Shown: positions 1,292 to 58,160 of the stretch, piece by piece
How positions within the stretch are numbered: position 1 is the stretch's first letter
Layout of the letters: every line of letters begins with the position of its first letter
DNA from: Eledone cirrhosa
Taxonomy: Eukaryota
Length of the DNA stretch: 64,000 nucleotides
Assembly (NCBI GenBank): GCA_964016885.1
Contig: OZ024740.1
Span: 101,866,001-101,930,000, forward strand
Direction: 5' to 3'
Notes under the pieces: generated by a model
Told to the model about the DNA's origin: nothing
Database searches by the model: none
Seen by the model: the letters and a program-made list of their open reading frames with translations, nothing else
Position numbers and translations under genes: made by a program

Positions 1292-3146
1292 TCATCATCA
1301 TCATCATCAACGTTTAACGTCCGTGTTCCACGCTTGCATGGGTTTGGACGGGGGTAGTCCCACTTGAGGCAAGAGTGATTGTCTTGCTCGCATAGGACTG
1401 TCTGGCAGGTTTTCTACAGTTGGATGCCCTTCCTAACACCAACCACATTTACAGTGTGGGTCTGGGAGGTTTTTACCGTGTTGCCTACACGGCCACATTA
1501 CAGCGTGGACTGTGTGTTTTTTTGTCGTGACACCTACACGATCTCATTTGTTTCGGCCTCGATGGCGCGGCACCAACATAACTTTACATAGAACGGGGTG
1601 GTGTGGATCGGGTGGGGGTGGGGGGGGTGGGACGGGGTGTATTTTGTTAGAGATGCCTACTGGCTGGAGTAGGTTTTACTATATATTTAGGTAAGGCGGG
1701 TCTTCTCTGTTACTGAGTACCGCCAAAGGTCTCGGTCCAGTGACATTGTCTTGGAGAGGTGTAAGTGTGTGATGTCGGAGTTTATCAGCTCGTCCCAGGT
1801 TTTTCTAGGTCTGCCTATTCCGTGACTACCGTCTATCTTTATTGCCCTGCACTTTGTTATACAGCTATCGACTTTCATGCGCATCACGTGTCCATACCAA
1901 CGTAGCCTTCTCTCGAGTAAACAACATCTGATCCCTCTTATCTCTAATTTATTCCTTAGTTCGTTTATGCTTTGCCGTTCACGTATATTACTGTTACACA
2001 TCCAGCGGAGCATGCAAGCTTCGTTCCTCTCTAGTCTGCGTATATCCTCTGCACACAATGCCCAGGTCTCACTGCCATGCAGCATTGCTGTTCGTATGCA
2101 GGCATCGTACAACCTGCCTTTCATTTTTAGTGAGAACCCTTTAGCAGCTAATAGTGGTATAAGCTCTCTGAACTTTTTCCAACCAGTTCTGACTCTAGCT
2201 ACAGTACTTTCAGAGCACCCTCCCCCACTGCTGATTTTATCGCCCAGGTAACGGAAGCTGTCCACTATTTCTATAGAACCCTCTGCGCAATTGAAAGAGC
2301 TAGTAGTTTGTGGGCACTTGCTGCTACTTATTGCACCAGAGCACCGGCCACATGTAAAATCTATGTTCTTAGTTAGCTTACCTGTGATCCCACTACATCT
2401 TTTATGCACCCATACTTTGCATTTAGGACATAAAATGGAGTTTCTACCTACGCCTTTCCTACACACCGAGCACGACCATTTCCCAGAAGGGACCGCCGCC
2501 TTGTTTTCTTTCCTACAAACTAGTACTTTGGTCTTAGCCAGGTTAATTTTAAGTCCTTTTGACTCTAGGCCGTGCTTCCATGTTTGGAATTTCTTCTCTA
2601 GCTCGGCCATTGATTCCGCTATGAGTGTCAGGTCGTCTGCGTATAGGAGTTCCCATGGGCAGCCTGTCTTGAACTCCTCTGTTATAGCCTGAAGGGCAAT
2701 AATAAATAGTAGTGGACTGAGAACAGAGCCCTGATGGACGCCGACTTTTACGCTAAACTCTTCACTATATTCGTTGTTAATTCTAACCTTGCTGACTGTT
2801 TCTTTATACATGGCTTGTATAGCCCTCACAAGCCATTCGTCAACGCCTAGTTTTCTAAGAGCCCACCAGATAATGGAGCGGGGGACTCTGTCGAAGGCTT
2901 TCTCCAAGTCGACAAAAGCTAAGTAGAGGGGTTTACCTTTAGCTAGGTACTTCTCCTGTAGTTGTCGTACTATGAAAAGAGCGTCTGTGGTACTTTTGCC
3001 TGACACAAACCCGAACTGCATTTCATCTAGGTCAATTCTCTCTCTGATTAGTTGCGCTATTACTCTTTCCGTGACCTTCATGACCTGGTCGATTAATTTA
3101 ATGCCTCTATAGTTACTCCTATCTAGGGCGTCTCCTTTACCCTTAT
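1288..3146 (-). mobile_element. 5'-truncated RTE-clade LINE inserted in (TA)n
   Basis: Open RT ORF, about 400-bp 3'UTR, (GAT)n tail. Both ends abut (TA)n. Confidence 0.95.
1687..3146 (-). CDS. RTE reverse transcriptase, C-terminal part, with an inserted PHD-type Zn finger; 5'-truncated
   Basis: Motifs NYRGIKL, QFGF, FVDLEKAFD, GVHQGSVLSPLLF, LLYADD, FRYLG, HGSETW, RRLRWYGHV, GRPRKTW. The track's N-terminal MVLLYIYIY comes from (TA)n. Confidence 0.9.
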
Positions 3147-3780
3147 ATATATATATATACAAAAGTACCAATGGAAACTTAATCTTCTTTCATCAAATAA
3201 TTGTTTTTAATCTCTTACAAATGTTTCTAATGAACTGTGATCTCGAATTATTCAACTGTTGTTGGAAAATACATCTGACATCTTCTGCAATATAATAGAT
3301 ATGAATTTTAGAACACAACTTCACCCTCTTCAGAGAGAAAAAGAAAGTCAATCATGATGATTAATCACTGAAAATATTTTTTACCTTTAGCATGGGATAT
3401 CTTAAATAATTTATAAGGATCAAGAAAATATATACTGAATTGATTTTTTTTTTCTTTTCCGGTTTTGTTAAATTCACAAATATCAAGTGTTGCCATTCTG
3501 TATTAAAAAGTATCAACAGCTGAAGTGTGTAAGGGAGATAATTTATGGAAATTTAATTTCAGAGATAAATAAACTTGTTTTAGAAAGGACAATATCCACC
3601 TCCCTAAATTACAATTAATTATTTGGGACACTATTATTTAGAACCAGAGGTGGACCTATTCTACCAGTTCTTTGAGAAAACAACACCAAATTTCAGCACT
3701 AAACATATAAAAAAATTGAAATAACAGAATAAGCTTTATTCCATCGTTATGTTTTTCTATTTTTTTCTATTCAAATTCTA

Positions 3781-5483: not shown

Positions 5484-7279
5484 ATATATATATGGAAAAA
5501 GTTTGTGGGGGTGAGACTCATATGCGATAGTTAAAGAATAAGAGAAATATATGTAAACAGTATAAAATTGTTGCACTAGAATGTGGCATGTGATAGTGGT
5601 TTTGAAATAAGTTTGTGGAATAGGTACATAATATAAAATCATGATTAGGAAGAGATAAAGTAGCAATAAAAGAAAGAATGACAAAGATGGAGTACTGAAT
5701 AAAGATAGAAAACAGTTTAATATTTGATTTGATTGTGTAATGAAGTTTTGAAGAAAAGAAATAGGTTTTTCTTGTATTTGCCTAAAGTCAACCAAACTTG
5801 TGATTCTTGCAGAGATATTTATCATTTGCTAGAATTTGGCAAATGTTCATTTTTCAGGAAGAAAATGTGAACAACATAATACAATGAATGTATGAAATAT
5901 ACTAGTCTGAAGGGGTTAGAAATCTCAGTATAACAAATTATGTTTTAATATAGACATATAAGATATGGCTTTCATAATATATATTTGCTACATACAGAAC
6001 TATGTTGAAAACTAAATACTTCATGCAGCCAACATAAAATACTCCTGGTATTTATTTTTCAATCTTTTTTTTTTTTTTATATAATTTATTCGGAGATACA
6101 GACCAGAGATATTAGTGTCCAAGCAGAATTTCACAAGTTAGTATCAGCAGGAAAATCATGTATAAATTCTTGAAATATAAAGGATTCTTCTAAAGTTACC
6201 CAAGGACCAGGTGGTGGTATTAACTGGGGTGTAGCACCCAAGTATATGTATGCATAATTTTACATTGATATTGGACTTCTTGCCTCAGTACAAGGAACCG
6301 AAAATCCAAAATTTATGAAGATGTTCATCTTAGCATTTCTGAAACATGGTTCTGGATGGAATGTCTTACCCACACAGCCATTCCTCCACCTCTCTATTAT
6401 AATTCATAAATTGTTTGACTATGCCAACATGTATTCCTTATATCAGTGCATGGTAAAAAAGATGACTTTTTGGTGATTATGTGATCCTAGTTTTTATCCA
6501 ACTACATGGTACCTTTGGCAGTAGCATAGCTGGGGACAGTAAGGGGACGCCATATACTCCAGATAACACTTTAATGGGAGTGTCATTTTTTACTCTGCTG
6601 TATATATTTGAGTAGATGGGGTGCCGATGTGGATGTCAAACTGAAGAGCTGCCATGACCTTCAGAAAATGGCAGTTAGCATCAGCTCATGCTGAATGAAG
6701 CCATGTAAAGGGAAATTGCGTAGATAGAAACTATCTGCAAGCCTCCCAGATGGACAGTGTCATGTTAATTCTACTTAATGGTTATGTTAAGGATACAAAA
6801 GTTAACAAAATACTCAAACACTTACTCTATCATACACTGCAGAGTTAGTTGCATTGATTTGACAACTGCAATACACTGAAATTAATACAAGATTCCATTC
6901 ATTACAACATATAGCAATGCACAAGTTAGGTAGGTGTTCAAAATAATACAAAGAAGCAGAACATTTCTGAAGTGAACAGCATTGGAGGATTCTGTTCGCT
7001 CAACAGATGATTGCTCCAATAATTACACTTAAATTCAAATATCACAAAATTATAAAATTATGTTATAAATTCAAATCCTGAGGAAACTAGCTAAGTTATT
7101 TTGTTATGTTTATTTTAAGTACTTAAAAGCCTATAATGATGAAAAGGGAATGTAAAAAAAAAGAAAACAAGGCAGCACTTAGATTTTACACTTACATATA
7201 TGTAAGTCCAAATCTAGCCTGTTGGGGACAACAGCTGCTAAATGTTGATATTGGTGATATATATATATATATATATATG

Positions 7280-7837
7280 TAAAAGGTAAACAGAAATAAC
7301 AACACAATCGGTACAGTATATGGAAGGGATATATTAGGTTAACGCTTGATATAGCAGGAAGAGAGTCTTAACATTTCAGATGCTAGTCCTTCATCGGAAG
7401 AAAGAATGAGAAATAAAATAGATTGAGGGGACGGGCGGGATGGAATTGGAAAAAATGTCTTTAGATAAAAATAACAGGTCCATTCATGTTGACATCTTGG
7501 CAATATACGGTATGTTTAATTAAAACACCTGTGAATAGAGGGACCCTCTATCCACAGGTGCTTCAGGTCAGTTACTATAGTTATCTTTAGTAGTGGGGAC
7601 AATATCAGCTTGAGCACTTGCTGATGATCCAAGAGCTGAGTTTGAGCCCACGTATAAGGTGAAACAATCTTTTAGTGAATTTGTATAAGTGCGATTTAGT
7701 TATGAGGTCTTTCATTTTAATTTATCCTTTTAATTATTATGTTTCTCATATACCTCCCTTAGCTTATATTCTCTTCACGCTGGTGGTTAAAATCCTGTAA
7801 ATGAAAACATACTCTCCTGTGTTTTCCTCTCTATATT
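7280..7837. mobile_element. Probable Penelope pLTR-derived element with two opposed hammerhead-like motifs
   Basis: Minus-strand ctt-CCGATGA-agga..tct-GAAA-tgtt-aag (7368-7400) and plus-strand CTGATGA..GAAA (7621-7664). Central 35-bp palindrome. (TA)n on both sides. Confidence 0.45.
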
Positions 7838-7849
7838 GTATATATATAT

Positions 7850-8179
7850 ATAAATTAATAAAAGCAGTGAGTGGGAGCAAGGAGCAGGTTCCTTGTGTTG
7901 GAAAATTCATCGTTTTACGATCGTTTCTAGGATGTGTGTGTGTGTTGGTATGTGTATCATGCGGATCTGTGTAAAAATATTTTACAAACTATCAGAGGAA
8001 ATATACATACCTTCACATATATATGCGTGTCTTCAGAAATAATGTAAAATATTTTTACATGGATCTGTATGATGTGCATGCCAACACTCATATGTGTCCT
8101 GGAAATGATCCTAAAGTGATGAATTTTTTAATGTGGGGAACTTGTTCTTTGTTTTTGTTCATTGTTTTTATTAATTTAT
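7850..8179 (+). repeat. Long G.T-rich inverted repeat (137-bp arms, 56-nt loop)
   Basis: 7850-7986 pairs with 8043-8179 without indels: 100 Watson-Crick, 35 G.T, 2 other mismatches, 0 A.C (hand count). Confidence 0.95.
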
Positions 8180-8327
8180 CTTGACTCTGTTTTCCTGGGA
8201 TTTTCATCGAAAATTTTTGAATGCATCTTCTCTTTTCATGATATTTGGATTACATTGAGTTCTTCATACGGATTGGACACTACCGTATATTTTGGTAGAT
8301 TTTTCTACATATATGTGTATATGTGTG

Positions 8328-8411
<84 letters not shown>

Positions 8412-8542
8412 TATATATATGTATATGTGTGGAAGGGTCTACCAAAATATACGGTCTGAACAACGATCCAGACGTATATTTTATTATCGTCTCTGATCCA
8501 GAAACATTTGGTAATGGAGTAGTTATATTTTGTGTTGTTCAC

Positions 8543-8582
<40 letters not shown>

Positions 8583-8587
<5 letters not shown>

Positions 8588-9137
8588 TGCAGGGCAATAA
8601 AAATAGACGGTAGCCACAGAGTAGTCAGACCCAGAAAAACCTGGGACGACTTGATAAATTCCGACCTCACACACTTACACCTCTCCAAGACAATGTCACT
8701 GGACCGAGATCTTTGGCGCTACACAGTCATACAGAAGACTCGCCTTGCCTAAGTACAAAGCGAAACCTACAGTCAGTAGGCACCTCTAATAAAATACACC
8801 CCCGTCCCACTACCCCCACCCCATCCACACCACCCCCTTAAATATGAAGTTATGTTGGTGCCACAACATCCAGGCCGAAACAAATGAGGTCGTGTAGGTG
8901 CCACGACAAAAAAACACACAGTCCATGCTGTAATGTGGCCATGTAGGTAACACGGTAAAAACCTCCCAGTCCACACTGTAAACGTGGTTGGTGTTAGGAA
9001 GGGCATCCAGCCGTAGAAAACCTGCCAGACAGTCCTATACGAGCAGGACAACAAAACTTGCCTCAAGTAGGAAACCTCCCGTCCAAACCCATGCAAGCTT
9101 GGAAGATGGACGTTAAACGATGATGATGATGATGATG
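8583..9137 (+). mobile_element. RTE LINE 3' fragment
   Basis: Encodes the KCRAIKIDG...KTRLA end, then 3'UTR and (GAT)n. The 5' end abuts (TA)n. Confidence 0.9.
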
Positions 9138-10199
9138 ACATATATATACACACACATACATACATATATATTAAAAAAAACTGAAAGGAGCTAACAGAAA
9201 TTACTCAAATGATCAGTGGCATGAATTGAGATGAGAAATTTGAAAGCTGAGTGTGTCCTAGTGTCATTATTTGCTGCCCACAAAGAAAATGTTAATATGT
9301 TAAGAAAAACATCATCACCGTCATTAAATGATGAGGATGATGAAATGTTCTTGTGGATAACAAAAGGTAAGAGGTAATTGTTAGCACCTGAATGAGAAGG
9401 GGAGATTATTTCAAATAACGGTTGAATACATAGAAAAAAGAACAATCTGGTCTTTGATTCCAAGTGAAGGACTGTATATGTATGTGTTCTAACCTGAATT
9501 TGGTTTCATCGACATAGCATTGTCTTTCGTGCCTCTTCTGTATATATTAAAATGCTTATGTCTGTTCAGAGGTGAGGAGAACAATGAAGCCAAATTGAAG
9601 CAGAAGCACAGACCCATATCTGTCTTTCATCTTCAAAACAACGTTTAAATTGTTCGTTTTTCTTAAGTGTGTTGATTCAACAGTGAAATTATTATTAATG
9701 TCTTTAAAATATCTCACATTCTCATTTCTGTTAGGAAGTAATCCATAATAACAAAATAACTGTAAATAATGTAGTTACTTTCAGATAGATGTTAGAACTT
9801 GTCTCATCAGTAAATAGTCAAGAAATTATGTATATATATGTGTGTGTATATATATATATTATTATCATCATCATAATATTTTTAGATCCATTTTCTTATG
9901 CTGGAATGATCCAAGATTAGATGGATCAGAGACCCACATCTTGCTCATATATTCCATTTTTTGTATGGTATTTAGAGCAGCAAAGAGTTGTTACAATGTC
10001 AGATAGAATGATTTGTGGTGTTGTGTCTGGCTCTCTGCTCTATGAGTTCAAATCCCAGCAAGGTCAACTTTGCCTTTCATTGGTTTGAAAGTGATAAAAA
10101 AAAGTACCAGTCTAGTATTGAGTCGATTTTTCATGCCTGCTTGTACTGCAAGTGCCTGAGATGTTAAAAGCCTTAAATTCTCTGGCTAACTCATGTGTG

Positions 10200-30061: not shown

Positions 30062-30291
30062 TTAACCCTTTACTCTTTACATTTCTGTATATATACTAGT
30101 GTATTTTCACGGTAAAGGCTTTACCTCACATGATTATCTCACATAATGTTGAATCTATGAGATTTTGTTATTATTTATTTTGAGAACAATATCTTAACAT
30201 AAGTATGAGTGACCAGTTACGGCCGGTTTGAACAAAAGCAGATTAAAGAATTCTGACTATATATGACTGGTTAAAAATACTAAAGGGTTAA
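30062..30291. mobile_element. piggyBac-type MITE
   Basis: TTAA-cccttta...taaaggg-TTAA. Body homologous to 58736-58973. Confidence 0.75.
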
Positions 30292-30351
30292 ACAAACTTC
30301 TTAACCACACACCTGCTTATAAATAATAATGTCATTCTTTTTATGATTGTT

Positions 30352-32402
30352 TCATGGTTTTGTCAAAGAAGAATGGGTGGCTCTCATGGTTTTGTCAAAG
30401 AAGTAGGGGTGGCTCTCATGGTTTTGTCAAAGAAGAATGGGTGGCTCTCATGGTTTTGTCAAAGAAGAATGGGTGGTTCTCATGGTTTTGTCAAAGAAGA
30501 ATGGGTAGCTCTCATGGTTTTGTCAAAGAAGTAGGGGTGGCTCTCATGGTTTTGTCAAAGAAGAATGGGTGGCTCTCGTGGTTTTGTCAAAGAAGAATGG
30601 GTAGCTCTCATGGTTTTGTCAAAGAAGAATGGGTGGCTCTCATGGTTTTGTCAAAGAAGAATGGGTGGCTCTCATGGTTTTGTCAAAGAAGTAGGGGTGG
30701 CTCTCATGGTTTTGTCAAAGAAGAATGGGTGGCTCTCGTGGTTTTGTCAAAGAAGAATGGGTAGCTCTCATGGTTTTGTCAAAGAAGAATGGGTGGCTCT
30801 CATGGTTTTGTCAAAGAAGAATGGGTGGCTCTCATGGTTTTGTCAAAGAAGTAGGGGTGGCTCTCATGGTTTTGTCAAAGAAGAATGGGTAGCTCTCATG
30901 GTTTTGTCAAAGAAGTAGGGGTGGCTCTCATGGTTTTGTCAAAGAAGAATGGGTGGCTCTCATGGTTTTGTCAAAGAAGAATGGGTAGCTCTCATGGTTT
31001 TGTCAAAGAAGTAGGGGTGGCTCTCATGGTTTTGTCAAAGAAGTAGGGGTGGCTCTCATGGTTTTGTCAAAGAAGAATGGGTGGCTCTCATGGTTTTGTC
31101 AAAGAAGAATGGGTGGCTCTCATGGTTTTGTCAAAGAAGAATGGGTGGCTCTCATGGTTTTGTCAAAGAAGAATGGGTGGCTCTCATGGTTTTGTCAAAG
31201 AAGTAGGGGTGGCTCTCATGGTTTTGTCAAAGAAGAATGGGTGGCTCTCATGGTTTTGTCAAAGAAGAATGGGTGGCTCTCATGGTTTTGTCAAAGAAGT
31301 AGGGGTGGCTCTCATGGTTTTGTCAAAGAAGAATGGGTGGCTCTCATGGTTTTGTCAAAGAAGAATGGGTGGCTCTCATGGTTTTGTCAAAGAAGAATGG
31401 GAAGCTCTCATGGTTTTGTCAAAGAAGTAGGGGTGGCTCTCATGGTTTTGTCAAAGAAGTAGGGGTGGCTCTCATGGTTTTGTCAAAGAAGAATGGGTAG
31501 CTCTCATGGTTTTGTCAAAGAAGAATGGGAAGCTCTCATGGTTTTGTCAAAGAAGTAGGGGTGGCTCTCATGGTTTTGTCAAAGAAGAATGGGTGGCTCT
31601 CATGTTTTTTTTTGTCAAAGAAGAATGGGTGGCTCTCATGGTTTTGTCAAAGAAGAATGGGTGGCTCTCATGGTTTTGTCAAAGAAGTAGGGGTGGCTCT
31701 CATGGTTTTGTCAAAGAAGAATGGGTGGCTCTCATGGTTTTGTCAAAGAAGAATGGGTAGCTCTCATGGTTTTGTCAAAGAAGAATGGGTAGCTCTCATG
31801 GTTTTGTCAAAGAAGAATGGGTGGCTCTCATGGTTTTGTCAAAGAAGTAGGGGTGGCTCTCATGGTTTTGTCAAAGAAGAATGGGTGGCTCTCATGGTTT
31901 TGTCAAAGAAGTAGGGGTGGCTCTCATGGTTTTGTCAAAGAAGAATGGGTGGCTCTCATGGTTTTGTCAAAGAAGAATGGGTGGCTCTCATGGTTTTGTC
32001 AAAGAAGAATGGGTGGCTCTCATGGTTTTGTCAAAGAAGAATGTGTGGCTCTCATGGTTTTGTCAAAGAAGAATGGGTAGCTCTCATGGTTTTGTCAAAG
32101 AAGAATGGGTGGCTCTCATGGTTTTGTCAAAGAAGTAGGGGTGGCTCTCATGGTTTTGTCAAAGAAGAATGGGTGGCTCTCAAGGTTTTGTCAAAGAAGT
32201 AGGGGTGGCTCTCATGGTTTTGTCAAAGAAGAATGGGTGGCTCTCATGGTTTTGTCAAAGAAGAATGGGTGGCTCTCATGGTTTTGTCAAAGAAGAATGG
32301 GTGGCTCTCATGGTTTTGTCAAAGAAGTAGGGGTGGCTCTCATGGTTGTGTCAAAGAAGTAGGGGTGGCTCTCATGGTTTTGTCAAAGAAGTAGGGGTGG
32401 TT
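30352..32402. repeat. 32-bp minisatellite, about 64 units
   Basis: Unit ctcatggttttgtcaaagaag(aat/tag)gggt(g/a)gct repeated head to tail. Confidence 0.98.
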
Positions 32403-38697: not shown

Positions 38698-38850
38698 TTA
38701 ATCTGTTATTTTAATAAATATTTGCTCTACGGTTCTTATATATTTGATATATATTTTCCTTATCGAGCCCTCTTTGGATTTTAGTCTTCAATTTTATTAT
38801 TATTACTATTTGGCTCCTTCGGTTGAGCACTCTACTGACTTATATTCATC

Positions 38851-40806
38851 ATGCAGAAACAACATCTGAATATTTCTACAAAGAACATACCCGTACCAAG
38901 CAGGAAAACATACCTAAAACTCCTGATACAGAAAACAGACGCGTTCATTAAAAGGTTGCGTTGGCGTACCTTTTATTTCGATAATCCGCGAAAAGCAGAC
39001 AACAAACAGGATAAATTTGGATTTAAAACTTATAATAACCCTCCGTGGAACCCAGCATTGCTACCCTTCGAAAATGATGTCTTGGAACTCATTCGGAATA
39101 TCAAATTTCGGAATAGGAGCAATTCCTTCCAGCAAGACCTGAAGAATAGAATTCGTTCTATTAAGGATTCTAACGCCGTGCACGTCCATTCCGACAAAAC
39201 TGGCAACCTATATCAAGTGGAGCGCAGTACTTACCATCAACTACCACATAATGCTGTAACTAAGGATTACCGTAAAACTAATCGGTGCGTCATCAATGAA
39301 ATCAAAGATGCTGGGTTTAAAATCACATCTGATCTCAACATCCTGGACCGGACCGAACCTCTGGACCCTATCTCTCCCCACTTTACCATGAAGGTTCACA
39401 AATCCAATTTTCCGAACAACCCCTCTATTCGGCTTATTAACCCTACGAAGTCCGATTTAGGTAGACTTAGTAAAACGATTCTTGATAGAATTATACCTGA
39501 AATTAGAAGTTTGGCCCCTCTCGCACTGTGGAACAATTCTTTCGCAGTGATTGATTGGTTCAACGGCATATGTAACAAGGAATATTGCCGTTTTATCCAA
39601 TTCGACATCAACAATTACTATTCCTCCATCACTTTACCACTTCTCCTTAGAGCTATCAATTTCGCTAAAACACTTACAGTGGTTAAGGATTTTGAAGTTG
39701 ATGTCATCCTTAATGCCCGAAAGTCGGTGATTAATTTCGACGACTCTATTTGGATTAAAAAATCCAATAGTACCCCATTCGACGTGAGTATGGGCGCCAG
39801 TGACTCTGCGGAGGTTACTGATCTTATTGGCCTTTTCCTTCTTTTCTCTATCAAGGACGAATTCCCCAACGCGGGCGGTGGTTTGTACCGTGACGATGGT
39901 CTTTTGACCATGACTAAGTGCGGACCTCGTGCTTGCGACAGGTTCAGAAAAGAACTCACAGCCTTCTTTAAAGGCTTCAACCTCTCTATACAGGTTGAGG
40001 CCAATCTCTCGGTCGTTAATTACCTCGACGTTACCCTCAATTTATTGAATGGGTTGTATTACCCGTATAGAAAGCCGAATGATACGCTTAATTACATAAG
40101 TAAGCATTCCAACCATCCTGCCAGCATAACCAAGAACCTGGTAAGAAACGTTTCGTTGAGGCTTTCCCGTCTTTCCACCAACGAGCGCATTTTCAACGAC
40201 CATTCCACTTATTACAATGAAGCTCTTGCTCGAAGTGGATTTGTCGATAAGGTAGCATATACAGAGTACGAAAATAGACCTAGAAGAAATAGATCCCGTC
40301 GCATTTGTTGGTTTAACCCACCATATAATATGGAGGTGGCCACACCATTAGTTAAGATCTTTCTTTCCCTTATTACGAAGCATTTTCCCCCTACACATAA
40401 ATATAGTAAAATTTTTAATAGAAATACTATTAAAATTTCTTACTCTACGACTCCTAACCTTGCACATAACATCACAGCTTCAAATTTAGCTAAACTACCT
40501 AGCCGTAGGAACACGTGCAACCCTGTAGGTAGTACTAACTGTAATTGTAGGAATCGGGCTGATTGCCCCCTATCCGGGAAATGCCTCTCTAGTAACATTG
40601 TCTACAAATGTAAGGTTGTAACACCCACGTCCCGTAGGGCCTACATAGGGTTAACCGCCAATAGTTTCAAGCAGCGTCTTTACATGCATACCCATTCTTT
40701 TCGTTACCCTCTAAGAAGGAATATGACGTCACTTTCAGCTTATATCTGGAGTCTAAAAGACAACCACACCCAATATAAGTTACACGATTCTTTGCTTAAA
40801 CTTTAA
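38851..40806 (+). CDS. Penelope-like RT plus GIY-YIG polyprotein (651 aa; last 64 aa lost by deletion)
   Basis: SDKTGNLY, RLINPTKSDLG, FIQFDINNYYSSI, FDVSMGASDSAEV, GLYRDDGL, NYLDVTLNL, SNHP, WFNPPY, CNCR..CPL.G.C, then IVY..YIG. Confidence 0.92.
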   Translation: MQKQHLNISTKNIPVPSRKTYLKLLIQKTDAFIKRLRWRTFYFDNPRKADNKQDKFGFKTYNNPPWNPALLPFENDVLELIRNIKFRNRSNSFQQDLKNRIRSIKDSNAVHVHSDKTGNLYQVERSTYHQLPHNAVTKDYRKTNRCVINEIKDAGFKITSDLNILDRTEPLDPISPHFTMKVHKSNFPNNPSIRLINPTKSDLGRLSKTILDRIIPEIRSLAPLALWNNSFAVIDWFNGICNKEYCRFIQFDINNYYSSITLPLLLRAINFAKTLTVVKDFEVDVILNARKSVINFDDSIWIKKSNSTPFDVSMGASDSAEVTDLIGLFLLFSIKDEFPNAGGGLYRDDGLLTMTKCGPRACDRFRKELTAFFKGFNLSIQVEANLSVVNYLDVTLNLLNGLYYPYRKPNDTLNYISKHSNHPASITKNLVRNVSLRLSRLSTNERIFNDHSTYYNEALARSGFVDKVAYTEYENRPRRNRSRRICWFNPPYNMEVATPLVKIFLSLITKHFPPTHKYSKIFNRNTIKISYSTTPNLAHNITASNLAKLPSRRNTCNPVGSTNCNCRNRADCPLSGKCLSSNIVYKCKVVTPTSRRAYIGLTANSFKQRLYMHTHSFRYPLRRNMTSLSAYIWSLKDNHTQYKLHDSLLKL

Positions 40807-41587: not shown

Positions 41588-43634
41588 TCATCATCATCAT
41601 CATCATCATCATCAGGTTTAGCGTCCGTGTTCCACGCTTGCATGGGTCTGGACGGGGGTTTTCCCACTTGAGACAAGAGTGGTTGTCTTGCTCGCATAGG
41701 ACTGTCTGGCGGGTTTTCTACAGTTGCATGCCCTTCCTAACACCAACCACATTTACAGTGTGGGGCTGGGAGGTTTTTACCGTGTTGCCTACACGGCCAC
41801 ATTACAGCGTGGACTGTCTGGTGGGTTTTCTACAGCTGGATGCCCTTCCTAACACCAACCACATTTACAGTGTGGGGCTGGGAGGTTTTTACCGTGTTGC
41901 CTACACGGCCACATTTACAGCGTGGACTGTGTGTTTTTTGTCGTGACACCTACACGATCTCATTTGTTTCGGCCTGGATGATGTGGGACCAACATAACTT
42001 TACATTGAAAGGGGCGGTGTGGATGGGGTGGAGGTGGTGGGACGGGGGGGGGGGGGGGGGGGGTGTTTTGATAGAGATGCCTACTGACTGTAGTAGGTTT
42101 TTACTTTGTATTTAGGTAAGGCGGGTCTTCTCTATTACTGAGTACCGCCAAAGGTCTCGGTCCAGTGACATTGTCTTGGAGAGGTGTAAGCATGTGAGGT
42201 CAGAATTTATCAGCTCGTCCCATGTTTTTCTGGGTCTGCCTACTCCGTGGCTACCGTCTATCTTTATTGCCCTGCACTTTGTTATACAGCTGTCGTCTTT
42301 CATGCGCATCACGTGACTGTACCAACGTAGCCTTCTCTCGAGTAAACAACATCTGATCCCTCTTATTTCTAATTTTTTCCTTAGTTCGTTTATGCTTTGC
42401 CGTTCACGTATATTACTATTGCACATCCAGCGGAGCATGCAAGCTTTGTTCCTCTCTAGTCTGCGTATATCCTCTGCACACAATGCCCAGGTCTCACTGC
42501 CATGCAGCATTGCTGTTCGTATGCAGGCATCGTATAACCTGCCTTTCATTTTTAGGGAGAACCCTCTAGCGGCTAATAGTGGTATAAGCTCTCTGAACTT
42601 TTTCCATCCAGTTCTGACTCTAGCTACTGTACTTTCAGAGCACCCTCCCCCACTGCTGATTTTGTCACCCAGGTAACGGAAGCTGTCCACTATTTCTATA
42701 GAACCCTCTGCGCAGTTGAAGGAGCTAGTATTTTGTGGGCACTTGCTGCTACTTATTGCACCAGAGCACCGGCCACATGTAAAATCTATGTTCTTAGTTA
42801 GCTTACCTGTGATCCCACTACATCTTTATGCACCCATACTTTGCATTTGGGACATAAAATGGAGTTTCTACCTACGCCTTTCCTACACACTGAGCATGGC
42901 CATTTCCCAGATGGGACCGCCACCTTATTTTCTTTCCTACAAACTAGAACTTTAGTCTTAGCCAGGTTAATTTTAAGGCCTTTTGATTCTAGGCCGTGCT
43001 TCCATGTTTGGAATTTCTTTTCTAGTTCGGTCATTGATTCAGCTATGAGCGTTAGATCATCTGCGTATAGGAGTTCCCATGGGCAGCCGGTCTTGAACTC
43101 CTCTGTTATAGCCTGAAGGGCAATAATAAATAGTAGGGGGCTAAGAACAGAGCCCTGATGGACACCAACTTTTACGCTAAACTCTTCACTATATTCGTTG
43201 TTAATTCTAACCTTACTGACTGTTTCTTCATACATGGCTTGTATAGCTCTCACAAGCCATTCGTCATCACCTAGTTTTCTAAGAGACCACCAGATAATGG
43301 AACGGGGGACTCTGTCGAAGGCTTTCTCCAAGTCGACGAAAGCTAAGTATAGGGGTTTACTTTTAGCTAGGTACTTCTCCTGTAGTTGTCGTACAATGAA
43401 AAGAGTGTCTGTGGTACTTTTGCCTGACACAAACCCGAACTGCATTTCATCTAGATCAATTCTCTCTCTGATTAGTTGCGCTATTACTTTTTCCGTGACC
43501 TTCATGACCTGGTCGATTAATTTAATGCCTCTATAGTTACTCCTATCTAGGGCATCTCCTTTTCCCTTATAGCAGTTAACGATGATGCTGCTACGCCAGT
43601 CCTTCGGAACAACCCCATTCTGTACGACTTGGTT
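41588..43634 (-). mobile_element. 5'-truncated RTE LINE with a 112-bp 3'UTR duplication and one frameshift
   Basis: ORFs 42798-43634 and 42112-42690. Both ends in (TA)n. Confidence 0.95.
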
Positions 43635-50550: not shown

Positions 50551-51454
50551 TATTATTATTGTCGTCAATAGTAATATATTGTAGACATTGTGAATAATAC
50601 TCGAAGCTATGGATCTGGAATATTTAATTCATTAACAAGAGAATTTTACAATTACCGTAGTTACACACATGCTCTCGCACTAATATATACGCACAGGCTA
50701 ATGTATTCTTTTTCTTATATCATAGCTATGATGTTTCAGCAAAGCATGTGTTTATAGCTGTTACAAGTAAATGAATAAATCAACCTATATAACTATTCTA
50801 TTATAAATATTGAGTATGTGATTTTATGTGCTGTGAACTTAAAGATGCTGGAGAAAAAATATCAAAACAAACAGACACAAAAAATGAAGGCAGGAAAGAA
50901 AGAAAGAGAAAATAAGAAAAAAATTGCTTAGATTGGAATTTTAAACTAATTATACACTTGTAATTAATCAATTCTCTTGCAACATTAAAAAGTAAGACAA
51001 GTAAAAGTAGATAAAAATATATTTCTTGTATATTTCCCAGATATCTAGAAAAGATTGTGGAAATGGCACAGGTGACAAAACTGCAAAGTTGATATTTCCT
51101 GATATTTTCAAGCTTCTACATTTTTTACTTTTTTTGTTACAAACATTTGACATTCTTTTGTTTCTCTCTTAAGTTGAAGTAAAAGATAACATTATTTATT
51201 GTATTTGGTCTAATAAAGAGACCTACAGAAATCGGGCAGCATCACCATCATAATCATCATCATCTTTCAATGCCTGTTAGCAAGGTTTTTTAGTTGGATC
51301 ATTATAGATCAAAATAGTACTTAATCATCAGAGCTACTGACGTTACAGATGGCCGAGGGAGCAGCATCTTATAATAATGATAATGAAAATTGTGTACAGT
51401 GCTCAGGTGCACTACAGCTCATCAAAGGTGAATGTATAGTACATTCATGTATAG

Positions 51455-53631
51455 AGCAATTAGAGTCGTACATGGTAGAGGAACAGTGGGAATTCCTGAA
51501 AGCAAACCTGCTGATGGCGGCAGACGAAGTCTGTGGCTGGAGCAGGCCTGTAGGCAGGAGGAGAGTAACATGGTTGTGGAACAGTAAGGTGGAGGGGTCA
51601 ATCAAGGCCAAAAAGCAGGCTTGGAAAGCATGGCAGGATGGGGGAAGTAGAGAAGACTATCAAGTGGCCAGGAGGGAAGCTAGGAGACAAGTGTACTTCG
51701 CAAGAAGGGAAGCAGAGGAAAGAAAGTTCAAGCATGTTCTACAACGAGAGGACCAAAAACGTGAGGTGTTCAGGATTGCTAGGCAATGTGTCAAGGAAAA
51801 CCGTGATATTGTCGGGGAGAAGTGTGTACTTAACGATGATGGTGTACTTGCCATCACTGATGCTGATAAGAAGGTAGCTTGGAAGTGTCACTACGAAAGG
51901 CTACTAAATGAGGAGAATAAATGGGAGAAAGACAGTCTCCCCCACATCGACCCAATAGAGGGACCAGCAGTGTTAGTCGAAGATAGTATAATAAGTAAGG
52001 CAATCAAAGATATGAAGACGGGTAAGGCGGCTGGGCCTTCGGAAATAGTTGCTGAGATGCTGAAAGCCTCCGGTACGGTGGGACACACCATGGTCACCCG
52101 GATAGTAAACCAAGTCATACAGAATGGGGTTGTTCCGAAGGACTGGCGTAGCAGCATCATTGTTAACTGTTACAAGGGTAAAGGAGACGCCCTAGATAGG
52201 AGTAACTATAGAGGCATTAAATTAATCGACCAGGTCATGAAGGTCACGGAAAAAGTAATAGCGCAACTAATCAGAGAGAGAATTGATCTAGATGAAATGC
52301 AGTTCAGGTTTGTGTCAGGCAAAAGTACCACAGACGCTCTTTTCATTGTACGACAACTACAGGAGAAGTACCTAGCTAAAAGTAAACCCCTATACTTAGC
52401 TTTTGTCGACTTGGAGAAAGCCTTCGACAGAGTCCCCCGTTCCATTATCTGGTGGGCTCTTAGAAAACTAGGTGTTGACGAATGGCTTGTGAGAGCCATA
52501 CAAGCCATGTATAAAGAAACAGTCAGCAAGGTTAGAATTAACAACGAATATAGTGAAGAGTTTAGCATAAAAGTTGGTGTCCATCAGGGCTCTGTTCTTA
52601 GCCCCCTACTATTTATTATTGCCCTTCAGGCTATAACAGAGGAGTTCAAGACCGGCTGCCCATGGGAACTCCTATACGCAGATGATCTAACGCTCATAGC
52701 TGAATCAATGGCCGAGCTAGAGAAGAAATTCCAAACATGGAAGCACGGCCTAGAATCAAAAGGCCTTAAAATTAACCTGGCTAAGACTAAAGTTCTAGTT
52801 TGTAGGAAAGAAAATAAGGCGCCTGTCCCCTCCTGGAAATAGCCATGCTCAGTGTGTAGGAAAGGCGTAGGTAGAAACTCCATTTTATGTCCCAAATGCA
52901 AAGTATGGGTGCATAAAAGATGTAGTGGGATCACAGGTAAGCTAACTAAGAACACAAATTTTACATTTAGCCGGTGCTCTGGTGCAATAAGTAGCAGCAA
53001 GTGCCCACAAAATACTAACTCTTTCAATTGCGCAGAGGGTTCTATAGAAATAGTGGACAGCTTCCGTTACCTGGGTGACAAAATCAGCAGTGGGGGAGGG
53101 TGCTCTGAAAGTACAGTAGCTAGAGTCAGAACTGGATGGAAAAAGTTCAGAGAGCTTATACCACTATTAGCCGCTAAAGGATTCTCCCTAAAAATGAAAG
53201 GCAGGTTGTATGATGCCTGCTTACGAACATCAATGTTGCATGGCAGTGAGACCTGGACATTGTGTGCAGAGGATATACGCAGACTAGAGAGGAACGAAGC
53301 TTGCATGCTCCGCTGGATGTGTAATAGTAACATACGTGAACGGCAAAGCATAAACGAACTAAGGAAAAAATTAGAAATAAGAGGGATCAGATGTTGTTTA
53401 CTCGAGAGAAGGCTACGTTGGTATGGTCACGTGATGCGCATGAAAGACGACAGCTGTATAACAAAGTGCAGGGCAATAAAGATAGATGGTAACCACGGAG
53501 TAGGCAGACCCAGGAAAACCTGGGACGAGCTGATAAATTCCGACCTCACACACTTACACCTCTCCAAGACAATGTCACTGGACCGAGACCTTTGGCGGTA
53601 CTCATTAACAGAGAAGACCCGTCTTACCTAA
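51455..53631 (+). pseudogene. RTE ORF with a single in-frame nonsense codon (TGG>TAG at 52840-52842)
   Basis: ORFs 51349-52842 and 52852-53631 are in the same frame. Other copies have Trp at the stop. Confidence 0.9.
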
Positions 53632-54015
53632 ATACAAAGTAAAACCTACTAGACAGTAGGCATCTCTAACAAAATACACCCCCATCCCACCCCATCCACA
53701 CCGCCCCCTTCAATGCAAAGTTATGTTGGTGCCACAACATCCAAGCCAAAACAAATGAGATCGTGTAGGTGTCACTACAAAAAAAACACACAGTCCACGC
53801 TGTAATGTGGCCGTGTAGGTAACATGGTAAAAACCTCCCAGTCCCACACTGTAAATGTGGTTGGTGTTAGGAAGGGCATCCAGCTGTAGAAAACCCGCCA
53901 GACAGTCCCATGCGAGCAAGACAACCACTCTTGCCTCAAGTGGGAAAACTCCCGTCCAAACCCATGCAAGCGTGGAACATGGACGTTAAACGATGATGAT
54001 GATGATGATGATGAT
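51455..54015 (+). mobile_element. Longest RTE LINE copy (linker plus RT plus 3'UTR; endonuclease absent)
   Basis: Linker QWEFLK..EVCG..WLWN through the whole RT, then (GAT)n tail. The 5' boundary is approximate. Confidence 0.93.
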
Positions 54016-54023
54016 ATAATAAT

Positions 54024-57180: not shown

Positions 57181-57185
<5 letters not shown>

Positions 57186-58156
57186 CCACTATTAGCCGCT
57201 AGAGGGTTCTCCCTAAAAATGAAAGGCAGGTTATACGATGCCTGCATACGAACAGCAATGCTGCATGGCAGTGAGACCTGGGCATTGTGTGCAGAGGATA
57301 TACGCAGACTAGAGAGAAACGAAGCTTGCATGCTCCGCTGGATGTGTAATAGTAATATACGTGAACAGCAAAGCATAAACGAACTAAGGAAAAAATTAGA
57401 AATAAGAGGGATCAGATGTTGTTTACTCGAGAGAAGGCTACGTTGGTACGGTCACGTGATGCGCATGAAAGACGACAGCTGTATAACAAAGTGCAGGGCA
57501 ATAAAGATAGACGGTAGCCACGGAGTAGGCAGACCCAGAAAAACATGGGACGAGCTGATAAATTCTGACCTCACACGCTTACACCTCTCCAAGACAATGT
57601 CACTGGACCGAGACCTTTGGCGGTACTCAGTAATAGAGAAGACCCGCCTTACCTAAATACAAAGTAAAAACCTACTACAGTCAGTAGGCATCTCTATCAA
57701 AACACACCCCCGTCCCACCACCTCCACCCCATCCACACCGCCCCTTTCAATGTAAAGTTATGTTGGTCCCACAACATCCAGGCCGAAACAAATGAGATCG
57801 TGTAGGTGTCACAACAAAAAAACACACAGTCCACGCTGTAAATGTGGCCGTGTAGGCAACACGGTAAAAACCTCCCAGCCCCACACTGTAAATGTGGTTG
57901 GTGTTAGGAAGGGCATCCAGCTGTAGAAAACCCGCCAGACAGTCCACGCTGTAATGTGGCCGTGTAGGCAACACGGTAAAAACCTCCCAGCCCCACACTG
58001 TAAATGTGGTTGGTGTTAGGAAGGGCATCCAACTGTAGAAAACCCGCCAGACAGTCCTATGCGAGCAAGACAACCACTCTTGCCTCAAGTGGGAAAACCC
58101 CCGTCCAAACCCATGCAAGCGTGGAACACGGACGCTAAACCTGATGATGATGATGA

Positions 58157-58160
<4 letters not shown>
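57181..58160 (+). mobile_element. RTE LINE 3' fragment with the 112-bp 3'UTR duplication
   Basis: ORF 57219-57656. Both ends in (TA)n. Confidence 0.95.

Follow-up and report, generated by a model that had tools for sequence, protein, structure and literature searches.

We have analysed a stretch of 64,000 nucleotides (the window) on C1 of the 3.0-Gb Eledone cirrhosa genome, centring on the inverted repeat at 7850-8179 and the elements around it (Table 1). The two arms, 7850-7986 and 8043-8179, pair without gaps over 137 positions, with 100 Watson-Crick, 35 G.T, one C.C and one T.T pair and no A.C pair, a recount that reproduced the original prediction exactly. The G.T to A.C ratio of 35:0 has a binomial p of 6e-11. 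The wobble Gs lie on both arms (23 on arm 1 and 12 on arm 2) and, as first described, their 5' neighbours are T or A in 28 cases (20 and 8), C in 3 and another wobble G in 4, and never a paired G. The + strand folded with -213.7 kcal/mol (z = -17.7) and the - strand with z = -8.2. When the whole window was scanned for hairpins with a span of up to 1.5 kb, simple repeats being removed, this was the only skewed one among the six rows that passed.

Table 1. Features of the hairpin locus (window positions) and further edited copies of the same family
Feature	Position	Strand	Remarks
Left (TA)n tract	7838..7849		Likely insertion target or copied flank; sibling copies also begin after (TA)n
Arm 1	7850..7986	-	Inverted, tail-less copy of Penelope-like end; 22/60 pre-edit A now G on the + strand
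Loop with copy-specific junction	7987..8042		A changed 0/23; junction unique in the genome at <=2 mismatches
Arm 2	8043..8179	+	Element-sense end; 13/48 pre-edit A now G (8067 counted); one CpG C>T at 8106
SphI site	8076..8081		In this copy owed to A>G at 8076 and 8080; enzyme inferred from sequence
Optional element tail, 131 nt	8180..8310	+	Unpaired stretch 8180-8281 with 0/22 A changed
Second hairpin	8282..8455	+	Tail end, (TA)n and 29-nt inverted tail end; 7 A>G vs unedited sibling L068
End of second Penelope-like family (family X)	8456..8548	+	0 substitutions vs L068
RTE-like LINE 3' piece	8578..9138	+	Three-base repeat at its end, candidate priming end; no A>G excess
Edited copy L115			23 + 33 edits; self-pairing 155 WC, 56 G.T, 0 A.C
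Edited copy L123			24 + 13 edits; self-pairing 111 WC, 35 G.T, 1 A.C
Edited copy L118			22 + 5 edits; partner arm only 46 nt
Edited copy L125			20 edits; no partner arm
Edited copy L124			10 edits; no partner arm

The hairpin and its element family

A search with 7850-8310 returned 2301 candidates, the best 40 of which were scored, and a tolerant 24-place motif found 10,890 family arms genome-wide. In 29 sibling hairpins the ends adjoin (TA)n, the arms are near-perfect and A-T-rich, and G.T pairs are about as frequent as A.C pairs; such a more perfect A-T consensus was what the editing model had predicted. The junction between the arms differs from sibling to sibling, some copies begin at the tail end and others at the 7850 boundary, and the insertions sit in AT-rich or (TA)n DNA. 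These two start points match the two initiation sites demonstrated in vitro for a Penelope enzyme, as given in the accessible part of PMC11167929.

Longer copies run on, with the window + strand as reading strand, into the end of an ORF with a cysteine cluster and GIY-YIG-like motifs. The 200-aa ORF end of one of them (L050) was linked by the Atlas, with a score of 0.95, to a cluster in which 31% of the members have GIY-YIG; it had no match in Pfam, which also returned none, RT included, for the element's ORF pieces. We have moderate confidence in a predicted C-terminal GIY-YIG endonuclease in the element ORF. The family copies reached were truncated, with no intact reverse transcriptase among them. 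The ORF end shares 37% identity with a 655-aa ORF at 38839-40806, and one other relative has 706 aa; the 655-aa ORF appears Penelope-like, of another family, and has no Pfam match. Visual inspection suggested a partial hammerhead core near 8030-8036 of the reverse strand, and Rfam gave no hammerhead match at E <= 5.

Judged from these sequence features, the hairpin is the end of a mobile Penelope-like retroelement, with an inverted pLTR contributed by a 5'-truncated copy and a tail on one side. It had been placed among Penelope-like remnants; the context is indeed Penelope-like, but the hairpin is itself a Penelope end and not only a neighbour. Similarly, the proposed TA-flanked unit ending at about 8310 does have (TA)n at its left, but the edited unit extends past 8310, to at least 8455. 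A MITE or DNA transposon was excluded by the per-copy junctions, the one-sided tail and the run into a retroelement-type ORF.

Upstream, 7621-7665 and 7523-7563 hold a hammerhead-like core and a short palindrome, with no Rfam match; the element at 7523-7665 is probably another Penelope end and could supply read-through transcription. The window also contains a 32-nt unit repeated about 65 times in tandem (30198-32362).

Direction and context of the changes

Compared with the majority of the 29 siblings, the hairpin copy carries 36 A>G, 1 T>C, 2 G>A and 1 C>T changes, private to it, while cleanly aligned siblings show 0-7 A>G each (L022 and L028, with 13 A>G apiece from misaligned flanks, were left out). 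On the + strand, all wobbles but one are A>G (34 of 35), the exception (7923/8106) being a CpG C>T; T>C at 7962 masks one more A>G opposite it, at 8067, and the edit total was taken as 35. The initial reading of the wobbles as A>G editing thus held for all but one of them and had overlooked a hidden site, and the predominance of C>T that it had set against ADAR was not obtained. Shared G.U sites arising from both A>G and C>T, expected under the alternative of selection, were not seen. Besides the edits, the copy shows only about 5 point changes.

Of 108 A in the stem 35 were edited, whereas none of the 45 A outside it, in the loop and the unpaired tail, was (p = 1e-6). By 5' neighbour, the rates were 22/43 for T, 12/40 for A, 1/13 for C and 0/12 for G (depletion p = 0.008); by 3' neighbour, they were 6/7 for G, 5/12 for C, 18/48 for T and 6/41 for A. 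The helix-end zones were also without edits (0/30 A), and as they were delimited post hoc they stand outside the evidence. Both arms carry A>G on one strand, and therefore the template already contained both arms; an edited sense RNA inserted the ordinary way would show T>C in its inverted arm.

One-strand A>G clusters, confinement to duplex and 5' G depletion are the marks of ADAR hyper-editing, and all three were seen in the hairpin copy. The genome encodes an ADAR2-like deaminase: PF02137 matched at four places on C1, C6 and C25, and the C6 ORF aligned to human ADAR2 with E = 3e-101. An APOBEC-edited retroelement was rejected, since it needs sense-strand G>A (2 G>A vs 36 A>G).

We have then looked for the edited letters in raw RAD reads from another sample and study (run X21). 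Ten molecules start at 8080, within the edit-made SphI site. Read ends were also seen at 7444 and 8173, both on sites of a four-base cutter, and one such site at 7904 predicts a 177-bp fragment (both enzymes being inferred). Ten pairs on 7904-8080 would give depths of 9.07 and 6.48 in two bins that unedited copies cannot fill, and the observed depths were 9.33 and 5.96; these pairs may derive from few original molecules. Some subfamily-B copies have the SphI site natively, so that the site alone is no proof and the letters of X21 at 7961-7963 carry the argument. G>A differences occurred at 3 places in these reads, all outside the stem. The presence of the edited letters in raw reads makes an assembly error unlikely.

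At 7962, all 19 reads have T where the assembly has C. The 7962/8067 pair is thus G-C in the assembly and G.T in X21, compatible with a later T>C on the wobble partner, possibly by hairpin-guided repair. It follows from the T in X21 that 8067 was a wobble too, and that the two alleles diverged afterwards. The flank 6700-7247 is present without difference in X1-X3, but these have no contig at 7962 (absent allele, low depth or filter). Among the contigs of X1-X4, which show presence and not absence, none had the edited form and none bridged the site.

Probable edited copies elsewhere in the genome

With a motif in which one favoured site had to be G, 23 matches were obtained, and these included five other heavily changed copies (on C4, C5, C12, C25 and C27). 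Their edits (L115, L123, L118, L125 and L124; Table 1) were counted against unedited members of their subfamily, B. A second motif gave 25 matches and no new heavily edited locus. Of the three matches to a one-G motif placed at the start of the arm, the two besides the hairpin copy were singly changed; two-G motifs matched the hairpin copy alone. The mirror control requiring G>A had 29 matches, none with two further changes and no G>A cluster, and a motif requiring T>C had 14 matches and no cluster. Two further motifs, with 451 and 490 matches, recognise a variant of a subfamily and, having no diagnostic value, were discarded as edit probes.

Altogether 217 arms at 158 loci were scored, in a sample chosen in part through the G-requiring motifs. 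Eleven arms at 7 loci carry 9-33 same-strand A>G, compared with at most 7 in the other 206; G>A or C>T never exceeded 6 in an arm. Relative to about 10,900 arms, the 7 loci correspond to a frequency of at least roughly one in a thousand. Among the best 40 scored of 475 candidates, there was no near-identical sibling of the edited arm of the hairpin copy. A generic inverted-repeat scan over 320 kb of loci was swamped by the L100 satellite, and its result was left out.

In the further edited copies, the pooled rates by 5' neighbour were 75/189 for T, 59/148 for A, 12/75 for C and 4/55 for G (G depletion p = 5e-6), and two tails had 0/54 and 0/31 A edited. The accessible text of PMC5625713 describes upstream G depletion as a shared ADAR feature and the 3' preference as A in invertebrates and G in mammals and reptiles; neighbour preferences were confirmed in squid, according to the part of PMC4384741 available. 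In contrast to the A of invertebrate hyper-editing in PMC5625713, G is the favoured 3' neighbour here (6/7 in the hairpin copy and 19/29 pooled), our values being rates per available A and the published ones shares of sites.

The edit sets of the different copies overlap without nesting, and their junctions differ. The partner arm is only 46 nt long in L118 and is missing from L124 and L125; the duplex on which these copies were edited was therefore not at the present locus. The sixth further locus of the family, L112 (866-1729), is a perfect hairpin of 335 Watson-Crick pairs with an identical set of 9 A>G in each arm, and a copy of this type could give rise to an edited lineage. Family X, probed with one motif only, gave three matches. 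One of them, L226, pairs over 63 nt with 38 Watson-Crick, 21 G.T, 0 A.C and 4 other pairs and has wobble Gs on both arms, its polarisation being weaker owing to a microsatellite and a diverged subfamily. The edited loci are thus 8 in two families: the hairpin copy, six of the same family and L226.

Two further observations concern the letters A and G in this material. Several sub-lineage differences of subfamily B (L104, L106 and L109 vs L119) are A/G in element sense, and some may be old fixed edits. The (TA)n at window 8311-8426 has 8 G and 0 C interruptions, and that beside the edited copy L115 (900-1035 and 1598-1850) has 13 and 19 G and 0 C per 120 nt each, as if flanking repeats had sat in the edited RNA.

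The second hairpin of the window pairs over 8281-8368 with 74 Watson-Crick, 11 G.T, 0 A.C and 3 other pairs. Its 3' junction is carried by only two loci, the window and L068, which lies 314 Mb off on C1 and has 8358-8789 in the unedited state. The window differs from L068 by 7 A>G, all inside the second hairpin, with none in 8456-8700. The two loci have 8578-8789 of the LINE piece in common at 96%, and they are mutually closest among 8 aligned copies of that piece (96%; next 93%). The shared sequence stops at 8789 and L068 has no large hairpin; it is therefore a sibling and not the donor.

The LINE piece, which we take to be RTE from its ORF text, has no A>G excess over 8578-9174 relative to the young RTE-like LINE copies of the window. 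The latter (1668-3147, 42039-43634, 51325-54018 and 57181-58160) are 93-97% alike and lie in both orientations. In L068, an inverted LINE ORF piece (1311-1437, reverse strand; 96% to window 51920-52046) abuts the shared unit beside a long tandem satellite (L100), an arrangement that resembles a twin-primed insertion.

Probable origin of the edited copy and known systems

Based on these data, an RNA-editing origin of the hairpin copy, be it through a new insertion or through overwriting of its own locus, is very probable. Within it, the likely course in our view is that ADAR hyper-edited the hairpin RNA of an earlier copy, and that reverse transcription of this RNA then placed a copy at a new site in the germline. 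The original prediction had likewise proposed an edited dsRNA written back by retrotransposition, and this is supported by copy-specific, one-strand A>G changes that avoid 5' G and unpaired RNA, in a family that is a mobile Penelope-like element. Ordinary insertions, as seen in the family, leave sense and inverted ends back to back between (TA)n and so build a near-perfect hairpin. Read-through transcription of the + strand of such a locus would yield an RNA spanning at least 7850-8455, in which ADAR may have deaminated about one third of the A in paired parts, the loop, tail and downstream sequence being spared. A retroelement reverse transcriptase would then take inosine as G and the copy be inserted, to be inherited with the few ordinary mutations that it appears to have gained since.

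The enzyme at the hairpin locus would most likely be that of an RTE LINE, priming at 9138. Because the LINE piece is common to L068, a composite RNA ending at the LINE 3' end is the simplest template. For the remaining edited copies, whose ends coincide with Penelope boundaries, the Penelope enzyme is indicated. The hairpin copy itself is probably without function. In the RNA runs compared, which bear other organism labels, only 0.05-0.06 of the words were present.

No unedited donor with the same loop junction was found in the assembly at up to 2 mismatches, nor did any of the loci compared match as donor of the five edited copies of subfamily B. The target-site duplication is unreadable inside (TA)n, which we count against a new-site origin. 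An account in which the same ADAR editing was followed by overwriting of the transcript's own locus, by element-primed or repair-linked reverse transcription, with L068 as a daughter from before the overwrite, has to be considered because no donor was found. It needs no third locus, the 3' junction being carried by only two loci and the loop junction by one, and a Penelope enzyme can cut within its own repeat in vitro (accessible part of PMC11167929). We nevertheless regard it as unlikely, given that one haploid assembly can miss a donor, that the inverted LINE piece left of L068 is unexplained by the flank of the window locus, and that the partner-less L118, L124 and L125 and the symmetric L112 show edited RNA reaching new sites in the family. 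Indeed, the copies without a partner arm and the symmetry of L112 fit copying from RNA edited elsewhere.

The remaining explanations place no editing in RNA. Polymerases of the pol-eta type have an A>G bias after A/T, and the 5' T/A preference also fits such a WA-type signature. An A>G-biased error-prone polymerase copying the hairpin, or a deaminase whose substrate was single-stranded DNA in a folded state or the DNA within an RNA:DNA hybrid, which ADARs can edit in vitro (accessible text of PMC12925331), might therefore have produced the changes in DNA. Such an origin is improbable, however: the loop and tail would be duplex in a hybrid, yet they were spared (0/45, 0/54, 0/31), about 32% of A changed with other change classes almost nil, and edits are present where the DNA holds no partner arm. 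Although the X1-X4 contigs read A at the wobble sites, an assembly or sequencing artefact is highly improbable and largely refuted by the G letters in the raw X21 reads; moreover, 29 sibling hairpins of the same assembly lack the skew, and the changes spare loop and tail and obey neighbour rules. We give the least credence to selection for a + strand hairpin, as a small-RNA precursor, during which G.U pairs accumulated. The + strand still folds strongly, and Rfam returned for the hairpin weak miRNA matches alone, every one far under its gathering score. On the other hand, A>G accounts for 34/35 wobbles and is private to this copy, about 5 other point changes leave no time for 35 neutral ones, and other edited copies have different sites; as the source of the wobbles, selection is refuted.

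Hyper-editing of a hairpin RNA followed by its reverse transcription into DNA hence remains the reading we prefer. RNA editing is normally not inherited, and the 8 loci in two families make the passage of ADAR-type edits into chromosomal DNA countable. The edited copies show which RNAs the Penelope and LINE enzymes can copy in trans, and a scan for G.T in excess of A.C needs no more than an assembly to reveal germline editing. They also carry a warning, as edited copies appear far older than their true age. More tentatively, ADAR might be a recurring germline mutator of this genome: Penelope insertions would build perfect hairpins, ADAR would loosen their RNA, and the loosened RNA could be read and reinserted by reverse transcriptases. 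If so, RNA edits become inherited DNA across many families and seed new element lineages of the L112 type, leaving a datable record of germline ADAR specificity.

With Penelope-like elements, as described in the accessible parts of PMC3846280, PMC8557442 and PMC11167929, the present family shares the inverted 5' copy, the tail at one end only, the (TA)n targets, the C-terminal GIY-YIG-like ORF in longer copies and the in-trans capture of other sequence. It differs in the length of the tail (131 nt vs the published 30-40 nt), in that a complete hammerhead was not detected here, and in its edited genomic copies, which those parts of the three papers do not describe. A preprint (10.64898/2026.07.22.740005) presents retrozymes as non-autonomous Penelope passengers, and its accessible text does not mention ADAR. 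In the literature searched, with most subscription papers outside its scope, we found no report of genomic ADAR-edited Penelope copies. Long duplexes, clustered A>G and upstream G depletion likewise characterise the RNA hyper-editing of repeats in lizard Penelope and octopus transcripts (PMC5625713), where the edits, in the text available, are in RNA reads only, whereas here they are in DNA.

The present scars are an A>G counterpart to the APOBEC scars of vertebrate LTR retrotransposons, which are likewise clustered, strand-biased marks of a host deaminase with an unedited source for comparison (PMC4866542, accessible part). Those are, however, G>A through C deamination of cDNA and have no tie to RNA stems, whereas here A>G is confined to paired regions; the available parts of PMC4866542 and PMC2873906 report them as absent from 19 invertebrate genomes. 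The closest precedent appears to be the ADAR-type A-to-G hyperediting of avian retroviruses, covered for the U3 of Rous-associated virus and an inverted repeat of avian leukosis virus in the accessible part of a review (PMC12925331). There, as in the hairpin copy, dense A>G changes, in the avian case of up to about half of the A, lie in an inverted repeat of a reverse-transcribed element. Unlike in the avian cases, the edited retroelement here is Penelope-like and resides in the host chromosome; the pattern recurs at 8 loci in two families, and the hairpin copy was seen in two samples.
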